Shown here in pieces: positions 16,356 through 45,247 of a stretch of 64,000 nt of DNA. Under the pieces are notes generated by a model. That model had not been told where the DNA came from. It saw nothing but the letters and a program-made list of their open reading frames with translations, and did not search any database. The stretch comes from Chiloscyllium plagiosum (taxonomy: Eukaryota), in contig NC_057755.1 of assembly GCF_004010195.1 (NCBI RefSeq), positions 11,010,161 through 11,074,160 of the forward strand, written 5' to 3'. The position numbers were made by a program, and so were the translations under genes. How positions within the stretch are numbered: position 1 is the first letter of the stretch; every line of letters begins with the position of its first letter.

Positions 16356-17230
16356 TTAATTTAGTGGCGCTCTTGATCTTGTCTCAGGGAAGGTGTGGCC
16401 TGTCCTCCTGCACCACTTGCTACCTGGTGGCCATGGCAGCATCGGATCTGATGGTTCTTATTACTGAGGTTGTACTGAGGAACATCAATGGTTATTACTT
16501 CCCATTATCCTTCTTAGATTTGACTCCATTGTGCAGTATAATCTATGTCTTATCAACAGCAGCCACCTCCTGCTCTGTTTGGTTCACGGTCACTTTCAGC
16601 TTTGATCGATTTGTCATTATCTGCTGCCAGAGACTAAAACTTAAATATTGCACAAAGAGAAATGCAGTTGTAATTCTGTCAACAACCTGTACCCTGATCT
16701 GTTTAATACATCTTCCTTTCTACTTTAGATTTAGACCTTATGCAATACTGTACAATCTCCCATGGCTCTGTGTTTCAAAGCCGAGCTACTACAGCGATTC
16801 GATTTGGGTGGGTTTTAAATGGTTCATAACAGTTTTTTATCCATTACTGCCATTTGTTCTAATTCTGCTGCTCAACGCTCTGACAGTCAGACACATTATA
16901 GTAGCCAGTCGAGTCCGCAAGAAACTGAGGGGACAGAGCAAGGGAGAGAATCGCAGTGACCCAGAGATGGAGAGTCGAAGGAGGTCTATAATTTTACTCT
17001 TTACCATTTCTGGCAGCTTTGTAATTCTGTGGTCCGTATATGTGATTGATTTCATTTATAACATTATTCCTGGAACTGATTCCACAGATGGTGACCATTC
17101 TTTATTCACATTTGGACAAGTCGGAATTATGCTGGTGAATTTAAGTTGCTGCACAAATGCATTTATTTATGGGGCGACACAATCCAAATTTAGACAGCAG
17201 ATCACGAAAGCAATGAAATGCTTTTTTTAA
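16356..17230 (+). CDS. GPR139/GPR142-like class A GPCR, main coding exon (copy A); exon 1 not present (gap at 15346-15845)
   Basis: Acceptor TTCTCTCCCTTACAG|TT. Open frame with TM1 end to TM7: YLVAMAASDL, SVWFTVTFSFDRF, LPFVLILLLNALTV, ILLFTISGSFVILW, NLSCCTNAFIYG, SKFR; stop TAA at 17228-17230. Confidence 0.9.
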
Positions 17231-19129
17231 AAACATAAATCAACATCATAATTAACCAAATGTTTGTCTCAGGGTTTCCAAGTTATGGATGGTGCTTTCG
17301 TATATTAACTTGATATTTGTAATTGTCTCCATTGGCCGGTTGGAAGTATGGCTGAATTAGATGCTACTGGGAAGTGCCTTAGAGTAGATGGAAGACCCAT
17401 TAGAATGGATATAAGGACAAACATCTTTAACTAGAGAGTGGTGAGTATGTAGAAATTATTGCCACTGAGGGCTATGGAGGCCGGGTCCTTGAATGTATTT
17501 AAGACAGAGATCGAGGGTCACGGGGAAAAAAAACATAAAAAATTGAGTTGAAAAACCTATCGGTGACGGTTGAATAGTGGAGTTGACTTGATGGACCGAA
17601 TAGCCTAATTTCCGTTCCTATGGTCTTATGGCCTAACAGCTCTGAAGGGGTAAAACTCTCTACAAGTATCTCTAGGCCAAAGTACAAAGTAACCCAAGGA
17701 TGAAAGGTGCTCAGATTAATTTTGTAAGTGGAGTTGAAGTGACTATTTCGCAGATTGAACAAAGTTTATAAATAGTGAAAGACGAGACCACTATTCAACG
17801 AGATTTGGATGTGAAACTTTCTCAACTTCTCCAACACGCCTCTTTGCAACTGAGGAGCTGAATGGTAACTTGAAAAGCTAATCCCGCCACATCTTATGTG
17901 GTAATACCAAGTGCTGGAAACAGTAAGACTCTTCCGATTTTGACGCACTGTTGATATTTTAGAAAAGAAAAGTTATCATTCGGTGTTTGAAATGACTTGC
18001 GAATTTTTCAGAGACTTTGAAAAGAGCAGATCTGGAAAATTAAAACCTGGGACTTTTCCAGGTCTCTTCCGCATCCTCACAGTCCGGGAACCCCCACATT
18101 CCAAGTGAGGACACAGTTTCAGACCAGACAGTGATGTAAATCCTACCATGCGTGTAACTAACCCGATCCCACAATACAAATAATGACTGAGGTCCTCTGA
18201 TTAATGATATGCTCCACTTAAACTTGAGTGACCATGTCCACCTCTCAGTAACTTAGATTTGTAACAGGCGTCAGCTTATCTCTCCACTCTCAAGTGACAC
18301 TTGAACCCATGATATATTTAACCGTGCTGCTCTTGTCCCGCTGCTGGTAGAAATCACATTTGACCATGCTAATCCCATTCTACTAGTGCTACACAAATAA
18401 TGAAGGTGACCATTCTCTAGTACTCATAACATCCTAACCTACCAGTAGATGTGTTTGTACTGCTTGGATATGAGGAGGAGGATCTCATTTACATGAGATG
18501 TAGCAATATTAGCTCATTAATGCTCGTGCCCTACGGATACACTGGAGAAAGATGTGCTGGTTTGGTACTAATGCCCAGCTACAGATATCTAGTTGCGATT
18601 CTCTGGTAATGATTATACAGTGACACAAGATCGAACATAGATATTTTGATAGGAGTAGTACAGCAACATGTACACGAGGCTTCACAGTGCTTCTTTGATA
18701 TGAGACTTTGATATGAGAGTTACTGGTATCTTGTACAAACCCTCTAATTTACTTATGCCCTGCACCAATTCTCCAATTCAGTGTTTCCCGACACCAACTT
18801 CCCTATTTGCTGATGTCCTGAGCACATTCTGCACTAAGTGTTGCCATACACCAATTGCCCCATTTACTGATTCTCTCATTGAGGGGTGCCATACTCTAAT
18901 TCTCCCATTCAGTCCTGTCCTGCCCCAATTCTCCTCCTTAGTGCTGCACTGCACCAATTCTCCCATTTAGTGCTGCAATACTATGGACCCAAACCAAAAT
19001 CATGTGACACTCCCACAGTTCTAAACCGCTTATAATAAAGTACTGCCTCAGTATTGGCCATCTCACAATAATTATTCCCACAGTTTTCACCATCTGACAG
19101 TGCTTCAGTATCTCAGCTCATGGGAAAAT

Positions 19130-20640
19130 TGTTGAATGGGTCAATACTGAGGCAATGCCTCATTGCATCAGGGTCAGAATTGAGAGAATGCCACACGATT
19201 AGAGGGTCAGTGCTGAGATATCGTAGGTCTATCAGAGGGCCAGTACTAAGGGACTGAAGCACTGTGAGAGCTTGAACACTGAGGTGTACTTCCTTGTCAG
19301 AGGGTCAGAATTACCAGAATGCATTATTGTCAAAGCACCAGTCCTGAGGCTGCGTCTCATCATCCAGGAGTCTGAGTTGAGAGAGTGCCACATGGTTAGT
19401 GGGCCAGTACTGAGATACTCTATCATAGCGTCAGTTCTGAGGGCATTGCTCATTGTCAGACGTTCAATTCTGAGGCAGTGCCTCATTGCATGACGATCAG
19501 AAATGAGGGTGGATCAGGCGTTCAAAGGTTCAGTACAGACAGTGCAGCACAGTGAGAGAGCCACTACTGCGGGAGTCCACCCGGTCAATATTGAGGGAGT
19601 AGAGTATTGTCAGTGGTTCATTCCTAAGTGTGTGACTCATTGTCAGAGAATCTATTCTGAGGCAGTGCCTGATTGTAATGGGGTCAGAAATGAGGGAATG
19701 CTGCACGATTAAAGGATCGCTACTGAGGTATTGCAGAGTCAATTAAAGTAGCAGCTGAGAGAGAGAGAATCTAAGTCCTGAGGCAAGGCACTACTGTCAG
19801 CGAGTCAGTCCTGATGGAGAGCCTCATTGTTACAGGGTCAGGCGTAACAGAGTGCCTCATTTCAGGGGATCAGAGTTGAGGGTGTGCCTCCCAATTAGAT
19901 GATCAGAACTGGGGTATTGTGGCTCAATCAGAGGTTCGTTACTGAAGGGCTGCCTCATTGGCAGAGGTTAAAACTCACACACTTGTTTATCGTCAACAGG
20001 TTTGCGCAGAAGCACAAGCTTCCAAAGCACTGCTCCTTCATCAGGTGGTTGTCCACAACCAGCCCATGAAGAAGCAGCGCTTCGAAACTGGCTGCTTCCA
20101 AACAAACCTGTTGGGCGATAACGTGGTGTTGTGTGATTCTTAACTTTGTCCACCCCAGTCCAAAACCCGCACCTCCAAGTTATCATTGTTGATGGTCAGT
20201 TCTGAGGGTGGGCATCATTATCAAAGGGCCAACATTGTGGCAGTGCCTTATTGTCAGAACTTCCCTCCTACAAGTGTTTCACTTTGTTAGAGGATTTGTT
20301 CTAAGGCAGTACCTCGATATAATGCGGTCAGAACTGAGGTAGAAGTACATGATTAGAAGGTGAGTCAAGAGGTATTGCAGCTCTGTCACAGGGTCAGATC
20401 TTTGAGGATGTGCCATTGGTAGAGGGTCAATACTGACGCAGCGTATTTCTATGACGGGGTCAGAACTGAGGGAGCGCCACTCGTTCAAAAGGTCGGTTCT
20501 GCGATAGTGCTGCGCTGTCAGAGGGTCAGTTTTGTGAGAATGCCCTCATTAGCAGTTGTTCAGGACTGAGGCAGTGCCTCATTGTCAGAGGGTCCGTTCT
20601 GAGGCAGTCTCTCAGTATAAGGGGTCAGAGTGCCTCATTG
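19130..20640 (+). repeat. Degenerate ~33-34-bp tandem array (GGGTCAGTACTGAGGGAGTGCCTCATTGTCAGA-like); paralogous copy ~47070-48370
   Basis: GGTCAG..CTGAGG...CTCATTGTCAGA recurs dozens of times. Confidence 0.7.
19967..20185. mobile_element. Palindromic Penelope-terminus insertion (paralogous copy 47767-47984; related piece ~62500-62605)
   Basis: Inverted halves around ~20055; the copy at 47767-47984 is flanked by the 13-bp TSD TCATTGTCAGAAG; degenerate hammerhead-like cores on both strands. Confidence 0.6.
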
Positions 20641-20814
20641 TCGGGGGTCTATTTCCACAGTCAACATTGATGCAAAATGCTCACTTAGTATCTCCTTCAT
20701 CTCCTGCGGTTCCACACGTCGGTGGCCTTGTTGTTCTTTCAGGGACACTATTCTCTCCATAGTTACCCTTTTGCGCTTAATGTGTTTCTAAAAACCCTTT
20801 GGATTCGCCTTAGC

Positions 20815-23230
20815 ACTATGTCTCAATGTTATCTCATGTCTCCATTTTACTTCCTGATTTCCCCCTTAAGTACGCTCCTACTGCCTTTTTTTCTATTCTC
20901 AGGATACACTTGTCTGCTGTTTATACCTGACGTATGTTTCCTTCTTTTTCTTAACCAAAAATCTCAATTGCTCTAATCATCCAGCATTCCGTATGCCTAC
21001 CAGCCTTTCCTTTCACCCTAACAGGAATATACTGTCTCTGGACGCTCGTTATCTCATTTTTGAAGTCTTCCCATTTGCCAGACGTCCCACTACCTGCGAA
21101 AATCTGCCCCCAATCAGCTTTGGAAAGTCCTTGCATTTAACCATAAAAAATGGTCTTACTCCAATCTAGAACTTCAACTTTTTGATCCGGCCTATCGTTT
21201 CCCATCACTATTTTAAAATTAATAGAATTCTGGTTGCTGGCCCCAAAGTGCTCTCACACTGATACCTCCATCACCCCTTTTATTTGTCAAGAGTAGGTAC
21301 ATCCACATACTTACTCAGAAATTTTTCTTGTATGCACGAATCAAATTCCTCTCCATTTAAGTGTTTAACACTATGACAAACCCAGTCTATGTTTGGAAAG
21401 TTAGCATCCCTTATCATAACACCCCTATTATTCTCACAGAAACCTGAGATCGCCTTACAAATTTGTTTCTCAATTTCCCGCTGAGTAGGGGCAGCGGTGG
21501 CAGTGGTTCTTATTACAATCCCAATAAAGTGATCATTCTTTTCTTATTTCTCAGTTCCACCAAATGACTTCCCAGGATGTGTTGCCAGTAATATCCTCCG
21601 TCAGTGCAGCCATAATGGTATACCTTATCACAGACGCCAAACTCTCTCCTCTCTTGGCCCCGTTTGTATTATTCATCAACCATTTATATCCTGGAACATT
21701 ATGCTACCAGTCATGTCCATCTTTGAGCCACATCTCTGTGATTGCTTTGATATCCCAGTCCCATGTTCTTAAGCACACCCTGAGTTCCTCTGCCTTCCCT
21801 GTTCGATCTCTTGCATTGAAGAAAATGCAGTTTAATTTATCAGTCCTACCTTGTTCTCTGCTCTGTTTCTGCCTGCCCTGACTGCGTGACTTTCTCCTTT
21901 TCTCAACTGTACCAGTCTCAGACTGATCAGTTTCTTCACTATCTCTCTGGGTCCCCCCTCCCCCATCTTATTGCTCAAAACCAGCTTAGCAGCTCGAGCA
22001 AATCTCCCTGCTGGTTTATTAGTCCTCTTCCAAATCAGGTACAATTCACCCGGCTTGTACAGGCCAATTATACCACACAAGAGAATCAATTGATACAAAA
22101 ATGTGAACCCTTCTCTACTGCCCCAGCTCCTCAGCCATGCATTCATCTGTTCCATCCTCCCATTCCTATCCTCACTAGCTTGCACCACCATGAGTTATCA
22201 AGATCTTATCACCCTTGGGGACTTCCTATATAAATTCCTGCCTAACTTTCTTTCTACTCTCTTCAGAAACGCATCCTTTTCCCTTCCTACATCATTAGTT
22301 CCAATGTATACAATGACCTCTTGCTGGTCCCTGTCCCCTTTGAGACCATTCTGCACCCTCTTTGATCCTGGCAGCACGGAGGCAATGCAGCATTCTGATT
22401 TCTCACTGCTGGCTGCAGAGACGCCTGTCTGTGCCTCTGAGCAGGGATTCCTTTATCACAAGCAATCGCGTGGAACCTGATGTACCCCTTGTTACACTAG
22501 AATCAGTCTCAGTACCAAAACGTTGGTTGTTCGTGCTACATTCCCCTGAGAGTCCATCATACCCTACGTTTCCAAAACAGCATACTTGTTTGAGATGGGG
22601 ATAGATTAGATTAGATTACATTACAGTGTGGAAACAGGCCCTTCGGCCCAACAAGTCCACACCGATCCGCCGAAGCGCGGCCCACCCATGCCCCTACATT
22701 TACCCCTTACCCAACACTACGGGAAATTTAGCATGGCCAATTCATCTGACCTGCACGTCTTTGGACTGTGGGAGGAAACCGGAGCACCCGGAGGAAACCC
22801 ACGCAGACACGGGGAGAACGTGCAAACTCCACACAGTCAGTCGCCTGAGGCGGGAATTGAACCCGGGTTTCAGGCGCTGTGAGGCAGCAGTGCTAACCAC
22901 TGTGAAACCGTGCCGCAGGACCTGCAGGAGACTCTTGTACTACCTGCCTCCCTCTCCTACGCTTCCTGGAGGTAACCCACTTACTTAACTGCATCTGTGG
23001 TTTTTCTCCCTTCCTATAACTGCCATCCATCATCGCCTTTAGGTCCTGTAATTTCCTCATTGCCTCTAACTGCTGCTCCAACCAATCCATGCAATCTGTC
23101 AGGATTTGCAACAAAGACACTTCCTGTAGACACAATCATCAGTAACATGGAAACTCTCCCTGAATTCCCACATTCAAAAGGAAGAGAATATCCCTCTACA
23201 AAAGGCAACCTTTGCTGTACCTATGTGGCA
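20815..23230 (-). mobile_element. Decayed CR1 LINE 5' part (ORF1 zinc finger/esterase and ORF2 endonuclease)
   Basis: EQMNAWLRSWGSREGFTFL (ORF1 SGNH-esterase-like) and KWEDFKNEITSVQRQYIPVRVK (ORF2). Confidence 0.75.
22603..22916 (-). mobile_element. HE1-type tRNA-derived V-SINE
   Basis: Minus-strand 5' end GCGGCACGG..CACAGTGGTTAGCACTGCTGCCTCACAGCGCC (A box), GGTTCAATTCC (B box), V-domain GGGTTTCCTCCGGGTGCTCCGGTTTCCTCCCAC, (TAATC)n tail. Confidence 0.85.
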
Positions 23231-25930
23231 TCAGCCAATAGGGTCAGGCAGCATCAGTCTGCATTGTGGCTCCCATGATTGTATTTTATTTCTTCCCCAT
23301 CAGACTGCGCGTTCTATTTGTAATATATGGAATGTTGAAAAAGTGCTTATGTAGTGCAAACATGCGAAATTGACTGCCGTTCAGATGTTTTTCTTTTCCT
23401 GCATTCATTCTCTGATTGTTAAGTGAAGAAACATCTTAAAGTAAGTGAATTGCAGACTATTTATGTTGTGCATATATATTTATTAAAAATTAATTACTGC
23501 ATCCATGAATCTACTTTACAATTTATTACAATTTTCTCGTTTCAATCCTTTACAGAAGCATTTGTGAACAGTAAGTCCAGCTACTACTTTTTCCTTACGA
23601 TTCGAGCATGCTCATCCTGTTATATTTTAGAAAAATATTCTTTGCTGAATGTTGTGTTTCTTTAAATAGATGCCGTCGTCAGTAAAAGAGTTTTATTTTT
23701 CTGGAAGTTGAGAAGTTATTCAGTACTTTATATTTGTACGCTTTCCTTTCAGAATATTTTCTCTGGATGTATTCGAATCACTCAAAGACGATTCAGCTCT
23801 TAATTTGTGCACAACATCTAAATCTTATACAACTCAATAAAACACAAAATGAAAGCATTCCTTATGTGTAACAGAAGTACATTATTAATGTCAATGGCAA
23901 CATTTCAATCATCTCCTCAATTTCCAATACAAACGACAGCACAAAGAAAATTACTTACATGGTTCGGATCGAGGGATCAGGCTACACATGATCTAATATT
24001 GTGCAAAAGATACATTTCACAAATGATGGAGTGAAAAATAGCCCATAATTCAGTGTTTGTGACATCGTTCAAGCTTAGCGTTCAGTCTCAGAGTGGGGAA
24101 TGGGGTTTAGAAACAAATATGCTGAAAATCATCAAGTATAAATACAAAGGAACAAACGAGTGGATCTGGAAAGGATTTTAGCGCAAAAAACAAAGTTGAG
24201 GAACAATGGCAGGCACATAACGGTACATTAACTCCCAGCGATGAACAAACACTGTTGCAAAGGTTCAGACGAACTGTGGAAGTTAGGAACCGCATCAAAT
24301 TGCAGTGTTTGACAGCATTTGGATGGGTATATGAACATTAAGGCGTTAGAGGCATATAGGCCAAACACTGGCAAGTGAGACACGGTCAGATTGGAATGTC
24401 TGGACTGGAGGATATGTTAATATGCTGTGACTCTATCGGAACAGGAGTGGGCCATTCACCCCAACGGGTCTGTTCTGTCATTCCACATGATAACTGAGTG
24501 CCAGTTAGTAACATCAAGACGGACAGCAAGAGCGTTTTGTGAAGGATAAAAATAAAATCATTCAGCGAAGAGATGATTGACTCCTTTGGGAATGGTGTTG
24601 GCGATTTGAGAATGGGGAGGTATTTTTGAATATATACTTTTTTCAGTCTTCATTGAGGATCATTAAAAGAATAATTAAGAAGGAGGACCAGTAGAAATAA
24701 ATCCAATAAATATCATTAAAGAAAGAAAGCGTACAGGAAGAATTAATGGTATTAAAGTCTGAACATCTCCTGGACCCGATGAATTTCCCCCTGACATGTT
24801 AAAATGAGTTGGGACAGAGATAATGGAAACCCTCACGGTATTCTCTCCAGTTTCCTTCGAATTCTAGAAACAGCCTGGAGCATTCTAAAACTATCAATGG
24901 AACACTTCTTTCGGAAAAGTAAAATCTTTCAAGCCTATTATAAACGATTTGACACCAGAGCATGTAGAAATATATGAAAATCAAATGGACTCAGCATTAC
25001 GGATGAAGGAGAAATTCTCCCTGACAAATGCACTTGCATATATTGAGGAGAGAACAAGGAAGGGAGACACAGGGATTCAGTGAATCCAAAATATTTGGAT
25101 TGCCAAATGGTGTTTGATCAGGTACTGCACGTTCGACCGATAAGAGCCTGTGTCATTAGAGCAGTGTGTAGCATGCATGGAGGATTAGATAACTCATTGG
25201 CTAACTTAAAGGGGATGTGGTAGGCAAGTTTATTGCGACAGAGGGTGCTTGATGCCAGGGGTATTGGCAGAAACAGGCACAATAGAAACATTAAAGAGGC
25301 ATTTAGACAGACACATGAACAGGTCGGAACAGAGGGATATGGACAACGAACAGGCAGCTGGGATTAGTTTAGAATAGCATCATATTTAGGACAGACCTGA
25401 CCGTCTGAAGGGCTTGTTTCTGTGCTGTACTGTTCTAACTAAAACTAAGGTCTGTTTTCTCTAGAATTTGGAAGGTTTGGCAGCATCTGTCAGAAGTGAG
25501 AAATATTTTGCCCAGTTTTAACAAACGTCACTGAACTCAAAGCATTATTTCTAATTTCTCTCATCAGACGTTGCTTAATTTCTCTAATTATTCCTGTATT
25601 TTATTTGTTTCAGATCTCCAGCATCCAGACTTCCTTCTTTTATTCGGAAGTGCATAGTAATAGGTTTGGATTGGGTCAGGCTGAGAGTGGCGAAGGGCCT
25701 GTTCCACGGCTCTAAACTTTCTTTGTTCTTTGTATCTCCACCATCAACATTTCTTCCTTCCTCATTAGATTTTATTATTGTATTTTGATATAGTTTAGAT
25801 GATAGTTTGTGGCGTGCTTTCGGGACATTTTCAAGGAGTTCCATATTCTAGGTACAACAAGAGAGCAAGCAATACCGGACCTGGAATTACACAAAGACAC
25901 AGATCGTTCATGACATCGTCTTGAAGGCAG

Positions 25931-26599
25931 AACATAGAACATAGAACATAGAAGAATACAGCGTAGTACAGGCCCATTGGCCCTCGATGTTGCGCCCATC
26001 CAAGCCCACCTAACCTACACTAGCCCACTATCCTCCATATGCCTATCCAATGCCCGCTTAAATGCCCATAAAGAGGGAGAGTCCACCACTGCTACTGGCA
26101 GGGCATTCCATGAACTCACGACTCGCTGAGTAAATAACCTACCCCTAACATCTGTCCTATACCTACCACCCTTTAATTTAAATCTATGCCCCCTCGTAAT
26201 AGCTGACTACATACGTGGAAAATGGTTCTCATGGTCAACCCTATCTAAACCCATAATCATCTTGTACACCTCTATCAAGTCACCCCTAAACCGTCTTTTC
26301 TCCAATGAAAACAACCCCAAGTACCTCAGCCTTTCCTCATACGATCTTCCTACCATACCAGGCAACATCCTGGTAAACCTCCTCTGCACCCGTTCCAGTG
26401 CCTCCACATCCTTCCTATAGTATGGCGACCAAAACTGCACACAATACTCCAGATGCGGCCGCACCAGAGTCTTATACAACTGCAACATGATCTCAGGACT
26501 CCGGAACTCAATTCCTCTACCAATAAAAGCCAATACGCCATACGCCTTCTTCACCGCACTATTTACCTGGATGACGACTTTCAAAGTTGCCATCCAGGT
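25931..26599 (-). mobile_element. Young 5'-truncated CR1 insertion with 5-bp TSD GGCAG
   Basis: Intact RT C-terminus (LYKTLVRPHLEYCVQFWSPYYRKD), (TTCTATG)n tail, GGCAG at 25926-25930 and 26600-26604; empty site at ~12490-12510. Confidence 0.9.
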
Positions 26600-27009
26600 G
26601 GCAGCTTTAGGTAAAAGTGATCATAACTAGGTCTCACATCGGATCTGATGGAGAGTTGGTTAGGTCTAAAGATGGTGATTTACTGAGGCGATTGCGAGGA
26701 CATAAGATCAAAGAGAATTTGGAAATCAGATAATGTGTCAAGTTAGTAGAGGCAGTGTCTGACATTGAAGAAGATATTTCGGCATGCTTAGCAGAAGTGC
26801 ATTTTAATGCAAATAAGTGGCCATAAGGTAATAATGCACTTAAGTGACCTGAGGAAGTGAAGCATTGAGTAAAGAAATAGGAAAAATGAAAATACAAGAG
26901 TGGGAATAATGGAAGAATAGCAATAATTACAAAGACAAAATTATGTATAAGGAAGGGCAACTTGAGTACAAGAGAAACATACCACTGGAAATAAAACAAC
27001 AGTTTGCAA

Positions 27010-28420
27010 GAAGGGTAATAGGGAAATTTCTGGCAATTATAGACCAGTCATCTTACGTCTGTGGTCAGCTAATTTTTGGAAAGAATTATGAGGGATATGA
27101 TTTATGACTATTTGGGAAAGCATAGTGTGATTAAAGGCCGTCAGCATGGCTTTGTGAGGGGCAGGTCATGACTCACAAATCTTATTGAGTTCTTTGAGGA
27201 GGTGTCAAGACAGGTCGACGACGGGGTCGGGCAGCAGATGTGGTGTCTGTGGACTTCAGCAAGGCATTTGATAGGGTTCCCCATGGTAGGTTCATTCATA
27301 AAGTCAGGAAGTATGGGGTACAGTGAGATTTGGCTATCTGGATTCAGAATTGGCTGGCTGACAGAAGGCAGAGAGTGGTTGTAGATGGAATGTATTCTGC
27401 TTGGTGGACAGTGTTGAGTGTAGTCCCGCAGGGTTCTGTTCTAGGGCCTCTGTTCTCTGTAGTTTATAGAAATGGCTTGGATGAGAAGGTTGATGCGTGG
27501 GTTAGTACATTTGCCAATGACACAAAGGCTGGAGGTGTCGTCGATAGTATAGAGGGCTACTGCAGGTTGCAGTTCGACATAGACAGGATGCAGAGCTGGG
27601 CTGAGCAATGGCAGATGGAGTTCAACCTGGATAAATGCAAAGTGATGCATTTTGGAATGTCGAACTTGAATGCTGAAGATAAGATTAAAAACAGAATTTT
27701 TGGCAATGTGGAGGAACAGAGGTATCTAGTTTTGCAATTACATAGATCCCTCAAAGTTGTCACCCAAGTGGGTAGGGTTGTTAAGAAGGCATATGGTGGT
27801 TTGGCTTTCATTAACAAGGGGATCGAGTTTAAGAGCTGTGAGGTTTTGCTGCAGCTCTACCAGTCCCTGGTAAGACCACATTTGGAATATAGTGTTCAGT
27901 TCTGTTCGCCCTATTATAGGAAAGATACAGAGGCTTTGGAGAGGGTGCAAAGACGGTTTACCAGGATGCTGCCTGGATGGGAGGGCTTGCCTTAAGAAGA
28001 AAGATTGAATATGCTTGGACTTGTCTCGCTGGAGAGAAGGAGGAAGGGAGGAGACCTGACCGAGGTGTAAAAATAATGAGAGGAATAGATAGAGTCAATA
28101 GCCAGAAACTTTTCCCAGGACAGGTTTGACCAGTATGGTAAGTCATAGTTTGAAAATATTAGGAGGAAGGTATAGAGGAGACGTCAGAGGTAGGTTCTTT
28201 TTACAGAGAGTTATGAATGCATTGAATGCTTTGCCAGCTGTGGTGGTGGAAGCAGAGTCCCTGGGACATTTAAGCGACTGCTGGAAATGCATATGGATAG
28301 CAGTGAACAGAGGGGTGCGTAGGTTGAGTTACTATATTTTACATTTGGATTAAATCTCGGCACAATATCGTGGGCCAAAAGACCTGTTCTGTGCTGTACT
28401 TTTATATGTTCAATATTCTA
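27010..28420 (+). mobile_element. CR1 LINE RT/3' fragment
   Basis: VPQGSVLGPL, FANDTK, LVRPHLEYSVQF (ORF 27330-27995). Confidence 0.9.
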
Positions 28421-31400: not shown

Positions 31401-32039
31401 GTGATTGTGGAACCAGTCTATCGAAACATTTGCTAATGTCTCCAATCCTTAAGTTGGCAGAAGACCTAGGCCAGGCTGAGAACCTATTCCAGGGAACCCT
31501 CTACACACTAAGGGGACAACTTCGATTCTGGTCTCATATGAGACACGGCGGATTCAGTCATCATCAAATGGGCCCAAGCTTAATGGTGTGATACTGGGTC
31601 AAAAAGATTCAGCTTGCTTGGCTCAATACTTTACAATCAGTAAATGGTCGCCTGAATGAAGTCTGAATTAATTACCCAGATGTTTTTCAGGAAGGTCTAG
31701 GCATTACCAAATGCGCCAAGGTCACCTCGCATGTTGACTGGGAGGAAATTACCCGAATCTGCAAGGCCCGTCAGCGCCATTTTCCTTCCGCATAAAGGCA
31801 GATGCTGAAATCAGGAGGCTGGATAGGGAAAGAATCATCAACCCAGGACAGTTTGGAGAATGGGCAGCAACGGACCCTCCAACAGTGTGGCTCTCCCTCA
31901 GTGTTGACCCTCCGACAGCACAGCACTTCCTTAGTACCGAGAGTTCCGACAGGACAGTTCTGCCTCGATCGCGACGGCAGAGGTTAATGTCACGTGAGGT
32001 TAGGGCGAGCTGAATTCGTCTCTTCTTGAACCTTCGCAG

Positions 32040-34200: not shown

Positions 34201-34594
34201 CCATTATCGAGTGAGGGCAGACATCCTCACAGCTCCGACTGGAATGTGTATATTTTTTATCATATTCAGCTAATTTTCCATTTGGATGGAAGCACATAAC
34301 AAACGATAAGAAATAGGAACAGGTATGGGCCACTCGTCCCCTCCACCTTGCTCCATCACTCAGTAGGATCATAGCTGATCCGATAATCCTCATGTCTACA
34401 TTCTTTCCTCGATACCCTTGATTCCCCGACTGATCAGTAATCTATCTGTCTCAGCCTTCAATATACACAAGGACTCTACCCCACCCTATCGCTCTGTGAG
34501 TAGGAGTTTCAAAGGCTCACATCCCTCTGGGAGAAGAAACCCTTCCCCATCTCAGTCTTACATTAATGACCAGAGTGTGCCGTCTGCTCCCAGA

Positions 34595-35668
34595 CTCTGG
34601 TGGGAAAGATGCTGGAGTCTATTATAAAGGATGAAATTACTGCACATCTGGATAGTAGTAACAGGATAGGACAGAATCAGCATGGATATATGAAGGGGAA
34701 ATCATGCTTGACTAATCTTCTTGAATTTTTTGAGGATGTCACTATGAAGTTGGACGAGGGAAATCCAGTAGATGTAGTGTACTTGGACTTTCAGAAAGCT
34801 TTTGATAAAGTCCCACACAGGAGGTTAGTGAGTAAAATTAGGGCGCATGGTATTGGGGGCAAAGTACTAGATTGGATTGAAAATTGGTTGGCTAATAGGA
34901 AACAAAAGGTAGTGATAAACGGCTCCATTTCGGAATGGCAGGCAGTGACCAGTGGGGTACCGCAGGGATCCGTGCTGGGACCACAGCTTTTTACAATATA
35001 TGTTAATGATATAGAAGAAGGTATCAGCAATAACATTAGCAAATTTGCTGATGATACAAAGCTGGGTGGCAGGGTGAAATGTGAGAAGGATGTTAGGAGA
35101 TTACAGGATGACCTGGANNNNNNNNNNNNNNNNNNNNNNNNNNNNNNNNNNNNNNNNNNNNNNNNNNNNNNNNNNNNNNNNNNNNNNNNNNNNNNNNNNN
35201 NNNNNNNNNNNNNNNNNNNNNNNNNNNNNNNNNNNNNNNNNNNNNNNNNNNNNNNNNNNNNNNNNNNNNNNNNNNNNNNNNNNNNNNNNNNNNNNNNNNN
35301 NNNNNNNNNNNNNNNNNNNNNNNNNNTGGCAGTAGGAAACATATTTTCACTGATGGGTGAGTGCCGAACCAGAGGACACAGCTTAAAAATACGGGGTAGA
35401 CCATTTAGGACAGAGCTCAGGAGAAACCTCTTCACCCAGAGAGTGGTGGCTGTGTGGAATGCTCTGCCACAGGGGGCAGTGGAGGCCCACTCTCTGGATT
35501 CATTTAAGAAGGAGTTGGATAGAGCTCTCAAAGATAGTGGAATCAAGGGTTATGGAGATAAGGTAGGAACAGGATACTGATTAGAAATGATCAGCCATGA
35601 TTATATTGAATGGCGGTGCAGGCTCGAAGGGATGAATGGCCTACTCCTGCACCTATTGTCTATTGTCT
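34595..35668 (+). mobile_element. Young CR1 LINE RT (spans gap), nested in an older minus-strand CR1 (~34300-36260)
   Basis: QHGYMKGKSCLTNLLEFFE, YLDFQKAFDKVPH, GVPQGSVLGP, SKFADDTK; (TATTGTC)n tail. Confidence 0.92.
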
Positions 35669-36267: not shown

Positions 36268-39200
36268 TGGAACATAGAACATAGAACATTAAAGCGCAAT
36301 CCAGGCCCTTCGGCCCGCGATGTTGTGCCGACCTGTCATACCAATTTTAACCCAATCTAATCTACACTATTCCATGTATGTCCATGTATTTGCCCAATTA
36401 TGACTTAGATGTACTTAAAGCTGGCGAATCTACTACCATTGCAGGCAAAGCATTCCATGCCCTTACTACTCTCTGAGTAAAGAATCTACCACTGATATCT
36501 CTCCTATATCTATCACCCCTCAATTTAAAGCTATGCACCTCGTGCTCGCCGTCACCATACTTGGAAAAGGTCTCTCCCTGTCCACCCTATCTAACCTTCT
36601 GATTATCTTATATGTCTCTACTATGTCACCTCTCAACCTTCTTCTAACGAAAACAGCCTCAAGTCCCTCAGCCTTTCCTCATAAGACTTTCCCTCCATAC
36701 CAGTCAACATCTTAGTAAATCTCCTCTGCACCCTTTCCAAAGCTTCCACATCCTTCCACATCATCTATAATGCGGTGACCAGAACTGTACACAATACTCC
36801 AAGTGCGGCCGCACCAGAGTTTTGTACAGCTGTAGCATAACCTCATGGTTCCGGAACTCAATCCCTCTAATAATAAAAGCTATAACACAGAATGCCATCT
36901 TAACATCCTGTCATCCTGGGTGGCAACTTTCAAGGATCCGTGTACCAGGAAACCGAGATCTCTCTGCTCATCTGCGCTACCAAGAATCTTACCATTAGCC
37001 CAGTACTTTGCATTCCGGTTACTCCAAGCAAAGTGAATCACCTCACACTTGTTCGCATTAAACTCCATTTGCCACCTCTCAGCCCAGCTCTGCAGCTTAT
37101 CTATGTCTCTCTGTAACCTACAACATCCTTCGTCACTATCCACAACTCCACCAACCTTCGTGTCGTCAGCAAAGTTACTAACCCACCCTTCTACGCCCTC
37201 ACCCAGGTCATTTATAAAAGTGATGAACAGCAGTGGACCCAACACTGAACCCTGTGACACACCACTGGTAACTGGACTCCAGGATGAGCATTTCTCATCA
37301 ACCACCACCCCCTGTCTTTTTTCAGCAAGCCGATTACTGATCCAACTGCCATATCACCCACAATCCCATTCCTCTGCACTTTGCACAATAGCCTACTGTG
37401 GGGAACCTTATCAAACGCCTTGCTAAAGTCCATATACACCACATAAACCAGTTTACTCTCATCTAGCTGTTTGGTCACCTTCTCAAAGAACTCAATAAGG
37501 TTTGTGAGGCATGACCCACCCTTCACAAAACCACGCTGACTATCCCTCATCAAATTATTATTTTCTAGATGACTATAAATCCTATCTCTTATAACCTTTT
37601 CCAACACTTTACCAACAACTGATGTAAGGCTCACTGGTCTATAATTACCAGGATTGTCTCCACTCCCCTTCTTGAACAGGGGAACCACATTTGCTATCCT
37701 CCAGTCTTCTGGCACTATTCCTGTAGACAATTACGATTTAAAGATCAATGCCAAAGGCTCGGCAATCTGCTCCCTGCCTTCCCAGAGGATCCTAGGATAA
37801 ATCCCATTCAGCCCAGGGGGCTTATCTATTTTCACACTCTGCAGGATTTCTAATACCTCTTCCTTGTGAACCCCAATCACACATAGTCTAATAGCTTGTA
37901 TCTCAGTATCCTCGCCGACAACATTGTCGTTTTCTGGAGTGAATACTGTCGAAAAATATTCATTAAGTACTTCCCCTATCTCCTCTGGCTCCACACACAA
38001 CTTCCCACTACTATCCTTGATTGGCCCTAATCTTACTCTCGTCATTCTTTTATTCCTTACATACCTATAGAAAGCCTTAGGGGTTGCTCTGATTCTATCC
38101 GCCAACAACTTCTCATGTCTCCTCCTGGCTCTTCTGAACTCTCTCTTTAGTCTTTCCTGGCTACCTTGTAACCCTCAAGCACCCTAACTGAGTTTTCACA
38201 TCTCATCCTAACATAAGCCTTCTTCTTCCTTTTGACAAGAGATTCCACTTCCTTCGCACACCATAGCTCCCGCACTCTATCACTTCCTCCCTGCCTGACA
38301 GGTTCATACTTATCTAGGAGACATAGGAGCTTTTCCTTGAATAAGCTCCACATTTCTAATATGCACATCCCCTGAAGTTTCCTTCCCCATCCCATGCTTC
38401 CTCAATGTTGCCTAATCACATCGTACTTGCCTTTCCCCCAGCTGTAACTCTTGCCCAGTGGCACACACCTATTCCTTTCTATCACTAAAATAAACATAAC
38501 AGAGTTATGATTGCGATCACCAAAGTGCTCACCTACTTCCAAGTCTAACACCTGGCTGGGCTCATTACCCAGTACCAAATCTAATGTGGCTTCGCCCCTT
38601 GTTGGCCTGTCTACATCCTCTGTCAGGACGTCCTCCTGCACAAAAAACTGACCCATCTATAGTTATCGTACTACAGTGTTCCCAGTCAATTTTTCTAATG
38701 TTGAAGTCCCCCATGACAACTACCCTGTGTCTTTCACTCCTATTGAGAATCATCTTTGCTATCCTTTCCTCTACATCTCTGGAACTATCGGAGGCCTATA
38801 GAAAACTCCCAGTATGGTGACTTCTCCTTTCCTGTTTCTAACCTCAGCCCATACTACCTCAGTTGACCAGTCTCCAAACATCCTTTCTGCAACTGTAATA
38901 CTGTCCTTGACCAACAATGCCACCCCCCTCCAACTTTTACCATCTTCTCGGTTCTTACTGAAACATCTAAATCCTGGAACCTGCAATGACCACTCCTGTC
39001 CCTGCTATATCCATGTCTCCTAAATGTCCACAACATCGAAGTCCCAGGTACCAACCCATGCTGCAGGTTCACCCACCTTATTCCGGATGGTCCTGGCATT
39101 GAAGTAGACACGCTTCAAAACAACTTCTTGCTTGCCGGTGCCATCTTGCATCCCTGAAACTTGATTTTGGACCTCCCTACTCTCAACATTTTCTATACTC

Positions 39201-39370
39201 AAACTACAATTTTGGTTCCCATTCCCCTGCTGGATTAGCTTAAACCCACCCCAATAATTTCCCAGATCCCCCAGTATATTGGTACCCCTCTGGTTCAGAT
39301 GAAGACCATCCTGCTTGTAGAGGTCCCACCTACCCCAGAAACAGCCCCAATTATCCAAGAATCAAAAACC
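36268..39370 (-). mobile_element. Long CR1 LINE (ORF1 esterase end + EN + RT), frameshifted
   Basis: DGLHLN (ORF1), YFNARTIRNK, VMGDFN, PTRGEATLDLVL, NYRPVSLTSVVGK, FADDTK; (TTCTATG)n tail. Confidence 0.92.
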
Positions 39371-39379
39371 CTCCCTCAA

Positions 39380-39770: not shown

Positions 39771-40235
39771 GTATTCCTGTGTGAGCTACAAATTTGGCTC
39801 CAGCACGTTTGCTTCCATCATGAAAGTGAAAATACTCAAGTCATTTTGATAAGTTTTTTGTATTCTGCGCCGTGCATGGCCATTGGTTTAGCTGAGTTGT
39901 CTGGAGAGCTGGCTTTCTGTGCAGAGCAGTGATAGTTGGAGAGGTTTAAGTGGCAGACTGGCTGAACTGACCATGAAGGACTCTCCCCTTGCCTGAGAGA
40001 GCAGGACTATGGCCTTATCTGTTATGTCTAATTTGAAACGACTCTAATATAGCTTATTGTGCATTTATTTCATTAAGTACTGTATACCTTAGCAACAAAA
40101 GAAATTGCCGATTCATTTAAATTATCCAAATTTAGTATCTAAAATATCAGTATCACCATTGAAACACATTCTATCACAACCGTGTTCTGACACAGATTTG
40201 TTTTTCCCAAATTGTAAAAGATCACTTTGAAAATG

Positions 40236-40280
40236 TTGCAATCCTCATGTCCCTGTGGAGATTTCCAGAGAGTATAAATA
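40236..40280 (+). promoter_or_regulatory. Candidate core promoter of GPCR copy B (TATAAATA 40273-40280; upstream TTGCAAT and TCCCTGTGGAG motifs)
   Basis: TATA box ~78 bp upstream of the exon 1 ATG; motif roles are inferred only. Confidence 0.4.
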
Positions 40281-40350
40281 ATGGGTTTCATTAACTCCGG
40301 AGCTGAATTAAGTTGGATTGTTCATTGAGGCAGAGGAGTGCATTCGGAAA

Positions 40351-40417
40351 ATGCACAGAATAATTCTGATTGCCAACAAAATATATTACGTGATCTTGGC
40401 TGTCATTGGTGTTCCGG
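40351..40417 (+). CDS. GPR139/GPR142-like GPCR copy B, exon 1
   Basis: MHRIILIANKIYYVILAVIGVP + G, then donor GTAAGT. The phase-1 join to 42972 gives GVPVNL (TM1 GxxxN motif). Confidence 0.85.
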
Positions 40418-42971
40418 GTAAGTAGGTTTACACAGAAACTGCGTAAGTATGCTGTCCCTATTTTTACTGAGGGACTGACACTGCGTACAAACCTTTATGC
40501 AGATACCGCATCAGTTTTATCATTTAATTTTCAAAACCTCCATTGGCCTCATATTAACATTGGTGTGTTGATTTATTGCCTCATATACAAGTGGGTTTCG
40601 GATTGCCGTTTGGGGATAGTGAACGCTACAGCTGATGGAAAGTCAGTTTCAGTAAACTGTGGAGCTGGATAAAGCACAACAGGTCTGGCAATATCAGAGG
40701 TGTAGGAGGGTTGATGTTTCAGACAGAGTGTTCATTTGAACCGTCTTGCTCCTCGAGCTGCTGTGTGTGGGGATGGAGTGATTCAGAGCTGGGGAGAGGC
40801 TGGATAAGCTCGGATTGTTTTGTTTGGAACACAGAAGTGGCAAATGTATCCCACTCGGGGGTTATGAGGTCGCCAATGGAATTCAGAAGGATTTTAATAG
40901 TGGTGGCGGCGGGGGTGAGGGGGAGAGGGGATTCTGATGGAAACTTACAGAATACTGAGAGGCCTGGATAAGTGGAAGTGGAGAAGATATTTCCACCAGT
41001 AGGAGTGACACGGGTCTGAGTGTACAGCCCCAGAGAGGAAGGATGACTCTTTGAAGCCGAGATGAGAATCAATCAGAAAACTCACATGCTCAAGTTCATT
41101 TTCTTAAACACTCTCGTTATTTCCATAGTCGTACGGCCCTGTCTTTTAGGAAAATGATTCTGGGATACCTCCTTGTGACAGCCTACCTCTCTCTTCTCAT
41201 TTAACAGCCTCCTTATGACTTTAGACCAAACATTTGCATCCCCATCCTATCGTCTCTGGTGTGTTAGCCCTCCTGCAGCAGCAGCCCCAAAAGATTTGGT
41301 GAGGTGGGGGGCAAATCGGGGGAGGAGTTGGGGAGGGGTGAGTTGAGGCGACGCTGGTTTTATTTTCACTCTCTTCATCGTCCCCTCTCATCCTGTTCTC
41401 CTGCCACCTGCACCCCGCCCAACAAAATAGCACATCCAGATCAAACCGACATCCACTCGTACTTTGTACGCTTCACTGGAACTCCCTGCACAGGATATGT
41501 TTCCATGCAACCTCCCAATTGGATTCCGTCACCATTTTGTTAAAAGATTCATCCAATCGATTTGTGTGACATTTAATGATCCGTCTCTCTATCTCTCTCT
41601 CTCTCTCTTTCTCTCTCTTCACTCATACACACTCTCTCTCACTCTCCCTCTCTCGCTCTCTGTCAGAGCTGTCCTGACTCCCTCCCTATCTGCTCGTGAC
41701 CTCCAGTGCTGGTGGAGTGACCACTTTACCAAGGATCAGCAAAGTGTCGACACGTTTTACCCTCTGGCTTTGGCAGAGAAGAGAGGAGACGGGGTTTCCC
41801 ATTGGAGTTGGAGATCCCAATTTAGTATGTGAGTAATAGGCTGCCCCATAACCCGGGGGTCCCTTTGGCTTTCTTGCTCCAACTGACAGTGACCCAGAGC
41901 ATTGTCCTCACAAGACACTCTCTGTTCCTCAATAAAGCACTTACATTTCCACTAACCCGTCTTCTCCCTTTTCCACCTCATTCATCTTTCAGTTGACTCA
42001 TTCACAGAATGGTGAATGCCTCATTTTCAAATATCTTCTCTGACTCTATCAACATTATAGATATGAACCAGGTCAGACGCAAATGTTATCTAGCGGACAG
42101 CATCACTTAGCTTCTCTCCTGATGAATGCTACCTGACCAGATGTGAGTTTCCATTTATTAATGCGTACTTGCTTTTTTTTGTAAAATCACACTCCTGGCT
42201 CGCTGAGTTTTTTTTATTGTTGAGGATTTACAACTAAGTAACTCGAGGTCACAGAGTCCTGGAGATGTACAGCGCAGAAACAGACCCTTCGATCCATTTC
42301 GTCGATGCTGACCAGGCATCCATAATTAATCTCAGCCCATTTGTCAGTGGCAAATGATTCTGAGGCATCAGGGGAGGTGGAATCCCTATTGTAAATCCGT
42401 GTCTTAAGATCGTAAGAAATAGGAACAGGAGTAGGCCATTGGGCCCCTCGAGCCTGCTGTGTCTTTCAATGGGATCATGGATGATCTGACATTCCTCACG
42501 TTCCGTCGTTTCTCCACACCCTGGCTGAACAAGATTCTATCCATGTCAGCCTTAAATACACACAAGGGCTCTGCCCCCACAGCTACCTGCAGCAAGGAGT
42601 TCCAAAGACTCACACCCCTCTGAGAGAAGAAATTCTTCCTCATCTCAGTCTTTTCGTGGCCAGGGCAGTTCCTTCGTCAGGTGAAATGAAAAAAGGGCAG
42701 TGTTCAGAAAGCTTGTGATTTCAAAGAAACCTGTTAAACTATAAGATGGTGGGGTGTGACGAGTTAAGTTCGAGGTTGGGAATATAATTCACACATATTC
42801 AGATTTGAACAGGAAGTGAACAAAGGCTTATCCCATAAACTCTCAGCTTGTTAGACCCGGGAATAGGCATGTTTGAGATGACGCTTCAGCAAGTTAAAGC
42901 CTTTTGTTTGGTACAAAAGTGAATCCAGAAAATATGTTTGATTCAAACGTGTCCTTTTCTCGCCCCTGCAG

Positions 42972-43867
42972 TTAATTTAGGTTCGCTCATGATCCTGTAT
43001 CAGGGGAAGTGTGGCCTGTCCTCCTGCACGACTTGCTGTCTGGTAGCCATGGCAGGATCGGATCTGATAGTTCTTATCACTGAGGTTATATTGAGGCACA
43101 TCAATCGTTATTACTTCCCATTATCTTTCTTAGATTTGACTCCATTGTGCAGCATAATCTATGTCTTATCAACAGCAGCCACCTCCTGCTCTGTTTGGTT
43201 CATGGTCACTTTCAGCTTTGATCGATTTGTCATTATCTGCTGCCGGAGACTGAAACTTCAATATTGCACAAAGAGAAATGCAGTTGTAATTCTATCAACA
43301 ACCTGCACCCTGATCTGTTTAATGCATGTTCCTATCTACTTTAGATTTAAACCTTATGCAATACTTTGCAATCTCCCATGGCTCTGTGTTTCAAAGCTGA
43401 GCTACTACAGCGATTCGAGCTGGGTGCGATTTAAATGGTTCCTCACAGTTTTTTACCCATTACTGCCATTTGTTCTAATACTGCTGCTCAACGCTCTGAC
43501 AGTCAGACACATGATAGTGGCCAGTCGAGTGCGGAAGGGACTGAGGGGACAGAGCAAGGGAGAGAATCGCAGTGACCCAAAGATGGAGAGCCGGAGGAGG
43601 TCTATAATTTTACTCTTTACCATTTCTGGCAGCTTTGTAATTCTGTGGTCCGTATATGTGGTAAATTTCATTTATAATATTATTCCAGGAACCAATCTCA
43701 CAGATGGTGATCATTCTTTACTCCTATTTGAACATGTCGGAGTCATGCTGGTTAATTTAAGTTGCTGTACAAATGCATTTATTTACGGGGTGACACAATC
43801 CAAATTTAGACAGCAGATCACGAAAGCACTGAAATGTAATTTTTACATAAATCAACACCATGAATAA
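42972..43867 (+). CDS. GPR139/GPR142-like GPCR copy B, exon 2 (spliced product ~320 aa)
   Basis: Acceptor CCTTTTCTCGCCCCTGCAG|TT; intact frame with DRF and NAFIY; stop TAA at 43865-43867. Confidence 0.9.
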
Positions 43868-44835
43868 CCAAATGCTTGTCCCAGTGTTTCCAAACTATGG
43901 ATGGCGCTTTAGTACATTAACTTGATATTTGTAAATGTCTCCATTGGCAGGCCTGAGAGCAAAGGGAAGACCCATCATAATGGACAAAAAGACAAACGTC
44001 TTTAGCCAGAGAGTGGTGAATATGTGAAATTCATTGTCTCAGAGGGCTGTGGAGGTCAGGTCGTTGCATGTATTTAAGACAGAGATAGCTGAGTTCTTGA
44101 TTGTCAAAGGTATCAAGGGTCATAAGGAAAAAGTAGAAAAATGGGGTTGAGAAAACCTGTCAGCGATGGTTGAATGGCAGAGCAGACCTGATGGGCCGAA
44201 CGGCCTAATTCCTGTTTCTATAGTCGTAAAGCTTAGAAGGGGTAAACTTCTTTGCAAGTATCCAGGAGAGCTGTCTAGGCCAAAATACAAAGAAACGCAT
44301 AGGTGAAAAGTCCTCAGACTAATTTTAAAAGTGGAGCAGAAGTGACTATTTCCGGTTTAGCAGAATGAACAAAGTTTATCAATAGTAAAAGAGTTGACCA
44401 CTACTCAACGAGACTTGCATTTGAAACTTTCTCAACTGCAACATCACGCCACTTCGCAACTGAGGATCTGAAAGATGATTTGAAAAGCTAATCCCACCAC
44501 ATCTTATGCGGTTATATCACGTTCATGAAAGAATAAGACTCTCTCTATTTTTACGCACTGTTCATACTTTATAAAAAGAAAAGTGATCATTTGGAGTTTG
44601 AAATGACTTGCGGATTTTTCAGAGACCTTGAAATGAGCAGATCCGGAAAACTAAAATCTGGAACTTTTCCAGTTCTCTTTCCACATTGTTGCTGTCAATT
44701 CAAGAAATAGAAACAGAAATTCGTCCAAAAGAGCATCTGGAAATTTGTTGTTAATTGCAGTGAAAGACGAGTATTTTAAACTCACCATAGTTATCAACCC
44801 TAACATTAATTTAACTCAATACATTGGAGTTGCAC

Positions 44836-45247
44836 ACTGAAACTTAAAAATTGCGCAAATTACCAACAACCTGCACCCTGACCTGTTTAATACAGATTTC
44901 TTTCTATTTCAGATTTATAAAATACTGTACATGGCTCTGTGTTATTATGGCGCTGTGTTTCAATGCTGAGCTGTTTTAGTGAGCCCAGCTGGGATTTAAA
45001 TGGTTCATTACAGACTTTTATCCATTACTGCCATTCATTCTAATTCTGCTGCTCTGACAGTCAGACACATTATAGTCGCCAGTCGAGTCCGGAAAGGCTG
45101 AACGGGACAGAGCAAGGGAGAGAATCATGGTGACCCGGGATGGAAAGCAGAAGGAGGTCTATGATTTAACTCTTTACCATTTCTGGCAGCTTTGTAATTT
45201 TGTGGTCTGTGTATGTGATAAATTTCATTTATAATATTATTCCTGGA
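44836..45247 (+). pseudogene. Decayed internal fragment (ICL2 to TM6) of a third GPR139-like paralogue
   Basis: Matches such as CAACAACCTGCACCCTG, CCATTACTGCCATT, ACAGAGCAAGGGAGAGAATC, TTTACCATTTCTGGCAGCTTTGTAATT, with deletions, frameshifts and stops. Confidence 0.88.

Follow-up and report, generated by a model that had tools for sequence, protein, structure and literature searches.

The window analysed here, i.e., the whole 64,000-nucleotide stretch of Chiloscyllium plagiosum DNA, holds two receptor genes (A and B), a decayed fragment of a third copy, and the duplicated blocks in which they lie:

15346-15845, no strand: 500 consecutive N, immediately upstream of the duplication block around A
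15892-20809, plus strand: duplication block that holds A; identity to 42530-48535 is 74-82%
16356-17230, plus strand: gene A coding exon 2, from the end of TM1 to the stop; open frame
40273: TATA-like hexamer upstream of gene B exon 1
40351-40417, plus strand: gene B coding exon 1, 22 codons and 1 base; GT donor at 40418
40418-42971, plus strand: gene B intron, 2,554 bases, phase 1, AG end; splice inferred from sequence
42530-48535, plus strand: duplication block around B and the fragment; N run 48536-49035 at its end
42972-43867, plus strand: gene B coding exon 2, open frame, 7tm_1
44860-45256, plus strand: decayed fragment spanning TM4 to TM6, broken by frameshifts and stops

The first-pass annotation of this DNA had described two paralogues with intact frames. 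Both exon 2 frames are open, and to that extent the description stands, but of A only exon 2 is intact: neither profile search nor DNA search turned up a first exon for it in the 64-kb window. The homology between A and B starts at 15892, 47 bases past the N run, and the missing exon would be expected upstream of that point. Exon 2 of A comprises 290 codons past the split codon and departs nowhere from the near-invariant positions of the family, while that of B departs at 3 of them (family range 0-10). The intron of B sits just before the TM1 Asn codon region, and its predicted splicing gives a product of 320 aa with no internal stop and, as had been claimed, no N-terminal sequon; the DRF, TM6 and TM7 motifs reported earlier are likewise present in the translations. 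The two second exons share 86.1% identity over 296 aa, with a dN/dS of 0.31. In a Pfam search (24,736 models, E≤0.001) they matched only 7tm_1, at 82.9 and 68.1 bits against a cut-off of 30.5. The AlphaFold2 model of A has a helical 7TM fold (mean pLDDT 85.7) with a TM-score of about 0.72 to class A receptors, among which Foldseek does not discriminate, GPR139 coming in third place; single-sequence folding gave a pLDDT of 44.7 and was discarded. Profile match and predicted seven-helix fold together place A and B in the class A (rhodopsin-like) GPCRs.

The duplication blocks that had been noticed around the genes align in three pairs: 15892-18068 with 42530-44679 (81.6% identity), 18073-19482 with 46061-47387 (77.4%) and 19584-20809 with 47393-48535 (74.3%). 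The stretch bearing the fragment, 44680-46060, has no counterpart in the block around A. The fragment itself, frameshifted and full of stops as expected of the decayed third copy first reported, is 80% identical at the DNA level to both A and B, and since similar fragments trail the paralogues L002 and L006, it was copied together with its block.

The idea of a lineage-expanded birth-and-death family of cartilaginous fish within the wider GPR139 group is borne out by the tandem clusters and pseudogenes found and by its size, which is not one of a few copies: pooled, the genome searches list at least 404 separate loci of the family, the match being free of stops in 355 and at least 322 lying on 34 chromosome-scale contigs. 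Their density is highest on the small contigs C44, C46, C37 and C48, a large cluster lies on C17 as well, and some copies sit 0.5-1.5 Mb from the true GPR139 on C21. Copy number is taken here from the search listings, as a lower bound, and from spaced sampling, where 100 stretches of 10 kb contained 22 loci, of which 6 were intact, 13 broken and 3 truncated by the edge of the stretch; the resulting estimate for the spans sampled on four contigs, 1,017 ± 484, suggests some 1,000 loci there, mostly broken. Summed DNA contig depth runs to about 20,000-41,000 at conserved places, compared with 11-20 in unique flanking sequence, in keeping with a very large family; it gives no copy number and was left out of the count. 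A protein search found 1,369 proteins among 2,005 candidates, and all 120 of the matches listed come from sharks or rays. Some sub-lineages are common to sharks and rays, which argues for long retention. Spread by retrocopying was ruled out, because the copies keep the TM1 intron acceptor (seen in 39 of 43 family exons, the other 4 not being evaluable) and close paralogues keep exon 1. Across 29 independent close pairs dN/dS is 0.29 (0.26-0.33), falling to 0.24 in the inner half, and the open copies are under purifying selection. Large, clustered, turning over by birth and death and yet selectively maintained, the family has the makings of a receptor repertoire.

Grouping with GPR139 and GPR142, which the first-pass annotation had proposed, does not hold in the strict sense. 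Both are separate single genes in this genome (C21:58.73 Mb and C24:44.31 Mb), and in the trees, all built under LG+G4 and with GPR139 and GPR142 each represented by a single shark row, the AU test rejects a grouping of the family with GPR139 (p=5e-17) as well as the family and the salamander genes with GPR139 and GPR142 (p=7e-4), the three GPR139/GPR142 groupings having p values of 7e-4, 5e-17 and 3e-41. The family is thus not GPR139/GPR142 proper, failing to be monophyletic with them, and the tree also rules out that it arose from GPR139 by local duplication on C21. It shares with them the class A fold, a phase-1 TM1 intron at the same place and a TM7 motif lacking proline, and its best sequence match among solved structures is GPR139 (PDB 7vug, E 2.9e-8); it differs from them in being merely 23-38% identical, and in the TM3 and ECL2 cysteines, present in 90 and 89 of 93 family copies and lacking in GPR139. 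Two further single genes of this genome, both of the non-mammalian GPR139-like kind, like-A (C26:36.60 Mb, 64% identical to coelacanth P0234) and like-B (C98156), carry, as do its GPR139 and GPR142, an acceptor-like AG at the same TM1 place. Nearest relatives and common intron set the family within the wider GPR139 group, which takes in GPR139, GPR142 and the non-mammalian GPR139-like genes. The low-copy GPR210A/B (PMC6504862) and 'NMOGPR' or 'Orphan 139-like' (a table in PMC5207463) of bony vertebrates, as far as the available portions of these papers describe them, fall on the same tree branch, their names being unmatched to individual lineages; the words 'shark' and 'cartilaginous' do not occur in the available text of PMC6504862. 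The motif oddities first taken as sensory hallmarks are ancestral: GPR139 itself lacks the TM7 proline, in single-copy like-A the TM3 Arg is likewise followed by Phe and the TM6 proline is missing, and all 5 of the single-copy or outgroup proteins checked have a short N-terminus that lacks a sequon.

The closest relative found is a conserved receptor that occurs in amphibians and sturgeon (P0244, P0408-P0427); it stands as the sister of the shark family with support of 100/99 and has features of TM3 and the third loop in common with it; a clade of the two excludes like-A, like-B, GPR139 and GPR142 with the same 100/99, and joining the salamander genes to like-A is rejected (AU p=0.012). Its amphibian orthologues form one cluster per listed species, 66-74% identical to P0244; that of Xenopus tropicalis is P0411, named 'probable GPCR 139' by NCBI. 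No one-to-one shark orthologue stands out among the 65 matches to it (best E 6e-45, 30-36% identity). The family is the expanded counterpart of what is apparently a single gene in amphibians and sturgeon, and it goes back to one old jawed-vertebrate gene whose pocket has stayed fixed in those two groups.

That pocket is nearly invariant in amphibians and hypervariable in the shark family. At 24 pocket positions, mapped over from GPR139 through an alignment of about 30% identity, entropy over 93 shark copies is 2.2 bits versus 1.43 elsewhere (p=2e-4), against 0.05 bits versus 0.53 in 20 amphibian orthologues (p=9e-6), and the 8-residue pocket signatures are distinct in 79 of the 93 copies. The outer half as a whole is the more variable one (2.01 bits, versus 1.19 in the inner half), and the margin of the pocket over other outer-TM positions is modest (2.29 versus 1.91, p=0.04); in recent pairs dN/dS at pocket positions is 0.34 (0.26-0.44), no higher than in the whole outer half and well under 1. 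A variable shark pocket opposed to a nearly invariant amphibian one is a sensory-repertoire pattern, in keeping with the repertoire idea first put forward. The accompanying idea of amino-acid sensing by the GPR139 mechanism fares worse. The residues described for Trp/Phe binding in GPR139 (F3.33, H5.43, W6.48, R6.51 and N7.38; PMC5430874, available part) are all five kept by shark GPR139 and by shark GPR142, whereas 90 of the 93 family copies keep at most two (one in 51, two in 39, three in 3), and gene A keeps only the Trp.

Evidence of transcription is scant. Two conserved places each draw about 10 reads from a single-cell run, and no RNA data set was listed as containing gene A. Four data sets aligned to A gave paralogue-like reads only, and because 226 of 228 reads are below 95% alike and none reaches 99%, nothing shows A to be transcribed.

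What, then, could several hundred two-exon class A GPCR genes be doing in sharks and rays? That they work as a chemosensory repertoire is the best explanation, and one to which we would give an even chance. An ancestral receptor with one conserved ligand would have been multiplied in cartilaginous fish by segmental duplication at the DNA level, and the pocket of the copies would then have diversified, so that the copies might recognise different chemicals from outside while signalling through a G-protein face common to all, in the nose, taste buds, chemosensory cells of skin or gut, or sensory neurons. Formyl-peptide receptor and MRGPR expansions offer the model for a different, rather unlikely use of the same repertoire anatomy, as innate-immune or barrier sensors by which leukocytes, mast-like cells or epithelia would detect peptides and metabolites that stem from microbes or from damage. 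The density of copies on the small contigs would suit it: in the bamboo shark 13 chromosomes, most of them high-numbered, evolve fast and are enriched in immune genes according to the available text of PMC7677710, whose numbering may differ from that of the contigs here; the large cluster on C17 does not fit so well, and a dN/dS near 0.3 even at pocket positions speaks against arms-race selection. Nor does the family name appear in any of 4 supplement files from a single-cell atlas of immune cells in cartilaginous fish, a weak search because gene labels may differ.

It is also conceivable, if improbable, that the expansion is largely passive, an old gene in duplication-prone chromosomes yielding redundant or weakly selected copies that decay with no repertoire function, as the broken majority of sampled loci (13 of 22), the multi-kb segmental duplications enclosing the window copies and the little RNA signal would have it. 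Such copies should hardly show the dN/dS seen across the 29 pairs and in the inner half, nor the long retention in sharks and rays, nor a pocket that varies beyond the rest of the protein where that of the single-copy orthologue varies less. Least credible of all is that the copies arose from GPR139/GPR142 and sense aromatic amino acids at the binding site of those receptors: the structure match, the common intron position and the copies near GPR139 on C21 lean towards it, against which stand the AU tests (p=5e-17 and p=7e-4) and the loss of the key pocket residues, none of the 93 copies keeping more than three of five. Amino acids might nevertheless be bound as ligands in some other way.

The preferred reading, a chemosensory repertoire, draws on a known analogy, as large, clustered, pseudogene-rich families are the mark of olfactory receptors (PMC10116579, available text). 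With OR, TAAR, V1R/ORA and V2R/OlfC the family shares clusters, pseudogenes, a variable outer half and a short N-terminus; it differs in its separate origin and in matching 7tm_1 only. Membership in the OR, TAAR, V1R, T2R or V2R families, for which the trees had no rows, was rejected on that Pfam match and on descent from the GPR139-like branch. Catshark nose neurons are described as all microvillous, consistent with V2R expression (PMC10116579, available text), and a nasal role is therefore not required of the family.

The expansion has been easy to miss. The RefSeq/GenBank name 'probable G-protein coupled receptor 139' is carried by 118 of the 120 matches listed, the closest of which is Stegostoma P0001 at 82%; these elasmobranch models, many with a mis-called first exon, belong to the same family, which the automatic name hides inside GPR139. 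We found no account of the expansion in the literature searched, and the family is likely a large undescribed set of chemical sensors. Cartilaginous fish are described as GPCR-poor in the available text of PMC8455134, a view contradicted by at least 355 stop-free matches in one shark, whatever their function. They are also described as OR-poor, a puzzle given their smell, the catshark having 8 OR-type, 3 ORA, 3 TAAR, 2 TARL and about 32-34 V2R genes (PMC11979771; PMC10116579, available parts), roughly ten times fewer than the family loci counted here; to that shortage of olfactory receptors the family is a concrete candidate answer. Through the single conserved orthologue of Xenopus tropicalis, a laboratory animal, the ancestral ligand and the place where the gene is expressed are open to direct test. 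The stronger proposal is that one orphan receptor of the GPR139-like kind gave rise, in sharks and rays, to a main chemoreceptor repertoire of their own, several hundred genes strong; it falls somewhat short of an even chance. If true, it would mean an independent origin of a smell- or taste-type family about 10 times larger than the olfactory families known in these fish, one that went unnoticed because all its copies are annotated as GPR139.

The window carries three members of a GPCR family of sharks and rays (hereafter the family), and the observation made in the first-pass annotation, of two open receptor exons, a decayed third piece and duplicated blocks around them, is confirmed.

Family members in the window (window coordinates)
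16356-17230, + strand: gene A exon 2, long open frame with a Pfam 7tm_1 match
40351-40417: gene B coding exon 1, before a 2,554-base GT-AG intron
42972-43867, + strand: gene B exon 2, long open frame with a Pfam 7tm_1 match
44860-45256: decayed third piece with frameshifts and stops, its DNA 80% identical to A and to B

Both frames match 7tm_1 and no other Pfam model, the exons of A and B are 86.1% identical (296 aa), and the spliced product of gene B has 320 aa. No exon 1 of gene A was found within the window and A/B homology begins just past a run of 500 Ns, so gene A can be called intact for exon 2 only. The blocks holding A and B (about 5-6 kb) are 74-82% identical. Since exon 1 is present in close paralogues elsewhere on contig C46 and on contig C96066, and the trailing fragment is also present behind two of them, the gene and its fragment were duplicated together. 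A further family member lies about 8 kb ahead of the window. Gene A is flanked by a large inverted duplication (7531-15345 and 23082-31874, arms 88-96% identical) in which no family exon was found; as its left arm stops at the N run, the duplication may be an assembly effect. Judged by eye, the window also contains decayed LTR-retrotransposon-like coding remnants (664-3251; integrase zinc-finger-like and RNase H-like pieces) and LINE reverse-transcriptase fragments on both strands (26210-28094, 34570-35577, 36883-38174 and 61131-61679). Long tandem arrays occupy 49036-59649, with periods of 34, 69, 37, about 70 and 44 bases.

Genome-wide, the family has far more than a few copies. With gene A as query, the best 135 of 8,171 candidates all (135/135) had E <= 1.8e-100, and the union of four genome searches with different queries gives at least 404 distinct loci, 322 of them on 34 chromosome-scale contigs and 82 on unplaced contigs (alleles may be among these), with a stop within the match in 49 of those listed. 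One further search brings the count to at least 450; the single-copy relatives, one hit resembling a somatostatin receptor, additional fragments of a locus already counted and the short partial matches of the added search are left aside. The search lists overlap little, and a Chao-type estimate from them, biased as they are, comes to 760-850 loci. The genome was also sampled in 100 stretches, each 10 kb long (40 on C46 and 20 each on contigs C44, C48 and C37, the last over the first 24 of its 35 Mb only). Their spacing was regular apart from an extra stretch on C46 and three that were shifted (one on C46 and two on C48), two of these away from known loci. The stretches held 22 loci (6 intact, 3 edge-cut and 13 broken), which scales up to 1,017 +/- 484 loci, 309 +/- 263 of them intact, on the sampled spans of the four contigs; an earlier pass over C46 gave 14 loci. 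Leaving out a shifted stretch with an intact match, the search lists already contained 3 of the 5 intact sampled loci. Open copies may fairly be put at several hundred, and all loci together at about a thousand or above. At C17:69.7-72.0 Mb at least 37 copies, many with stops, form a dense and young cluster.

In protein databases 1,369 of 2,005 candidates match the family; among the matches listed, 120/120 are from a shark or ray and 118/120 are named GPCR 139, and distant members are elasmobranch too (10/10 looked up). In protein cluster P0173 the last 300 residues of a Chiloscyllium punctatum model match the family and one member is named RING-type domain protein, a combination that is probably a gene-model fusion.

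In spite of its annotated name, the family does not group with GPR139. There is one true GPR139 gene, on contig C21 (match to PDB 7vug, E 1.6e-157), and a second gene, on C24, is 55% identical to it and is taken to be GPR142; family members are just 23-38% identical to GPR139. Among the best 150 of 986 cluster representatives, closer relatives appear in coelacanth, teleosts, salamanders and amphioxus, and fall into three lineages beyond GPR139 and GPR142, two of which have these loci in this shark.

Single-copy relatives
C26:36600769-36601743 (L061): like-A, conserved single-copy GPR139-like orphan gene
C98156:21305-22210 (L037/L062): like-B, conserved single-copy GPR139-like orphan gene, also in anchovy

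Like-A ranges over sharks, sturgeon, teleosts, coelacanth, amphibians, turtles and squamates; of the 120 hits listed, those that carry a name include neither mammals nor birds. Like-A is merged with TMEM183A in two public models, which suggests that the two genes adjoin. The third lineage comprises 20 amphibian clusters and one sturgeon among 25 hits, amphibian ‘single copy’ here meaning one cluster per listed species. In LG+G4 trees of 52, 40 and 41 selected rows the shark family and this amphibian/sturgeon gene form a clade (support 100/99), joined then by like-A (93/89), like-B (100/98) and two amphioxus-type proteins (98/97), with the GPR139+GPR142 branch outside. The lineage-specific expansion proposed in the first-pass annotation stands, whilst its grouping with GPR139/142 falls: AU tests reject the family's placement with GPR139 or with GPR139+142 (p <= 7e-4). 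The shark copies by themselves are less firmly supported as a clade (91/68 to 93/79), and no shark copy stands out as a one-to-one orthologue of the Xenopus gene. An acceptor lies at the same TM1 place in all five lineages. Three family copies sit 0.5-1.5 Mb from the true GPR139 (C21:59.2-60.2 Mb), close to where the 60.5-Mb contig ends; the tree speaks for a secondary origin of this proximity.

The motif oddities earlier taken as sensory hallmarks are inherited: the TM7 proline is absent from GPR139 too, in like-A the TM3 Arg is likewise followed by Phe and the TM6 proline (present in 28/93 shark copies) is lacking, and the single-copy relatives also have a short N-terminus with no sequon. 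An alignment-based model of the gene A exon-2 product (mean pLDDT 85.7) has a helical 7TM fold with a hairpin in the second outer loop, and matches class A peptide receptors without discrimination. According to the available part of PMC5430874, mutagenesis of GPR139 found F3.33, H5.43, W6.48 and N7.38 important for agonists, R6.51 being implicated by a model because its mutants failed to reach the surface. Shark GPR139 and shark GPR142 each have 5/5 of these residues; among 93 distinct open family exons of this genome 51 keep one, 39 two and 3 three, gene A keeping only the Trp, and amino-acid sensing of the GPR139 type is accordingly improbable for the family. Pocket positions of the 93 exons stand at 2.2 bits vs 1.43 for the rest, and the reverse holds for 20 amphibian orthologues (0.05 vs 0.53), the sturgeon having the amphibian residue at 11 of the 16 positions printed. 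From such a fixed ancestral pocket we infer that there was probably one conserved ligand. In the shark proteins the outer half has 2.01 bits vs 1.19 for the inner.

An old receptor with a fixed pocket would most likely have multiplied in cartilaginous fish by segmental duplication, its copies retaining the inner signalling face whilst the pocket diverged and many copies died. Receptor repertoires for varied outside chemicals look like this, with a conserved signalling face, a diverged pocket and many dead copies. Numerous pseudogenes are described as a hallmark of olfactory families in the part of PMC10116579 available. On this pattern there is about an even chance that the family is a chemosensory repertoire, for which it is a candidate; a repertoire for immune or barrier sensing, which the same pattern might also serve, is a less probable reading that deserves some weight. 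Passive expansion would account for the duplications and the dead copies, and is rather unlikely given dN/dS values (0.31 for A vs B; 0.29 in 29 independent pairs, with 0.24 for inner, 0.36 for outer and 0.34 for pocket positions) that indicate purifying selection on open copies and do not show recent positive selection. No RNA data set was listed as containing gene A. In about 2% of one single-cell run (tissue unknown), two conserved places had some 10 paralogue-like reads each, and no read in this part reached 99% identity; with so many loci these reads could be background. In run X5, poly(A)-ended repeat reads pile up at window 16056-16111, their source being other copies of the repeat.

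Public annotation already has these genes, named GPR139. A literature search covering few subscription journals found no paper describing the shark expansion, nor is it described in the available parts of PMC12294341, PMC12208981, PMC10115646, PMC11979771, PMC7677710 and bioRxiv 2025.09.06.674125; a term search of the accessible text of PMC11406177 gave no match, and neither did the family's annotation name in 12/24 supplementary files of PMC8455134, 4 of PMC11372145 and 3 of PMC7677710. As far as the accessible portions go, the GPR210A/B subtypes that PMC6504862 names in bony fish are low-copy, ‘NMOGPR’ and ‘Orphan 139-like’ appear as unclear entries in PMC5207463, and the shark expansion is covered in neither paper. 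According to PMC8455134, cartilaginous fish are relatively poor in GPCRs. What is new is the amphibian/sturgeon orthologue, the rejected GPR139/142 membership and the pocket reversal. The family is an unusually large, lineage-specific GPCR repertoire with an origin of its own, whose function we infer.
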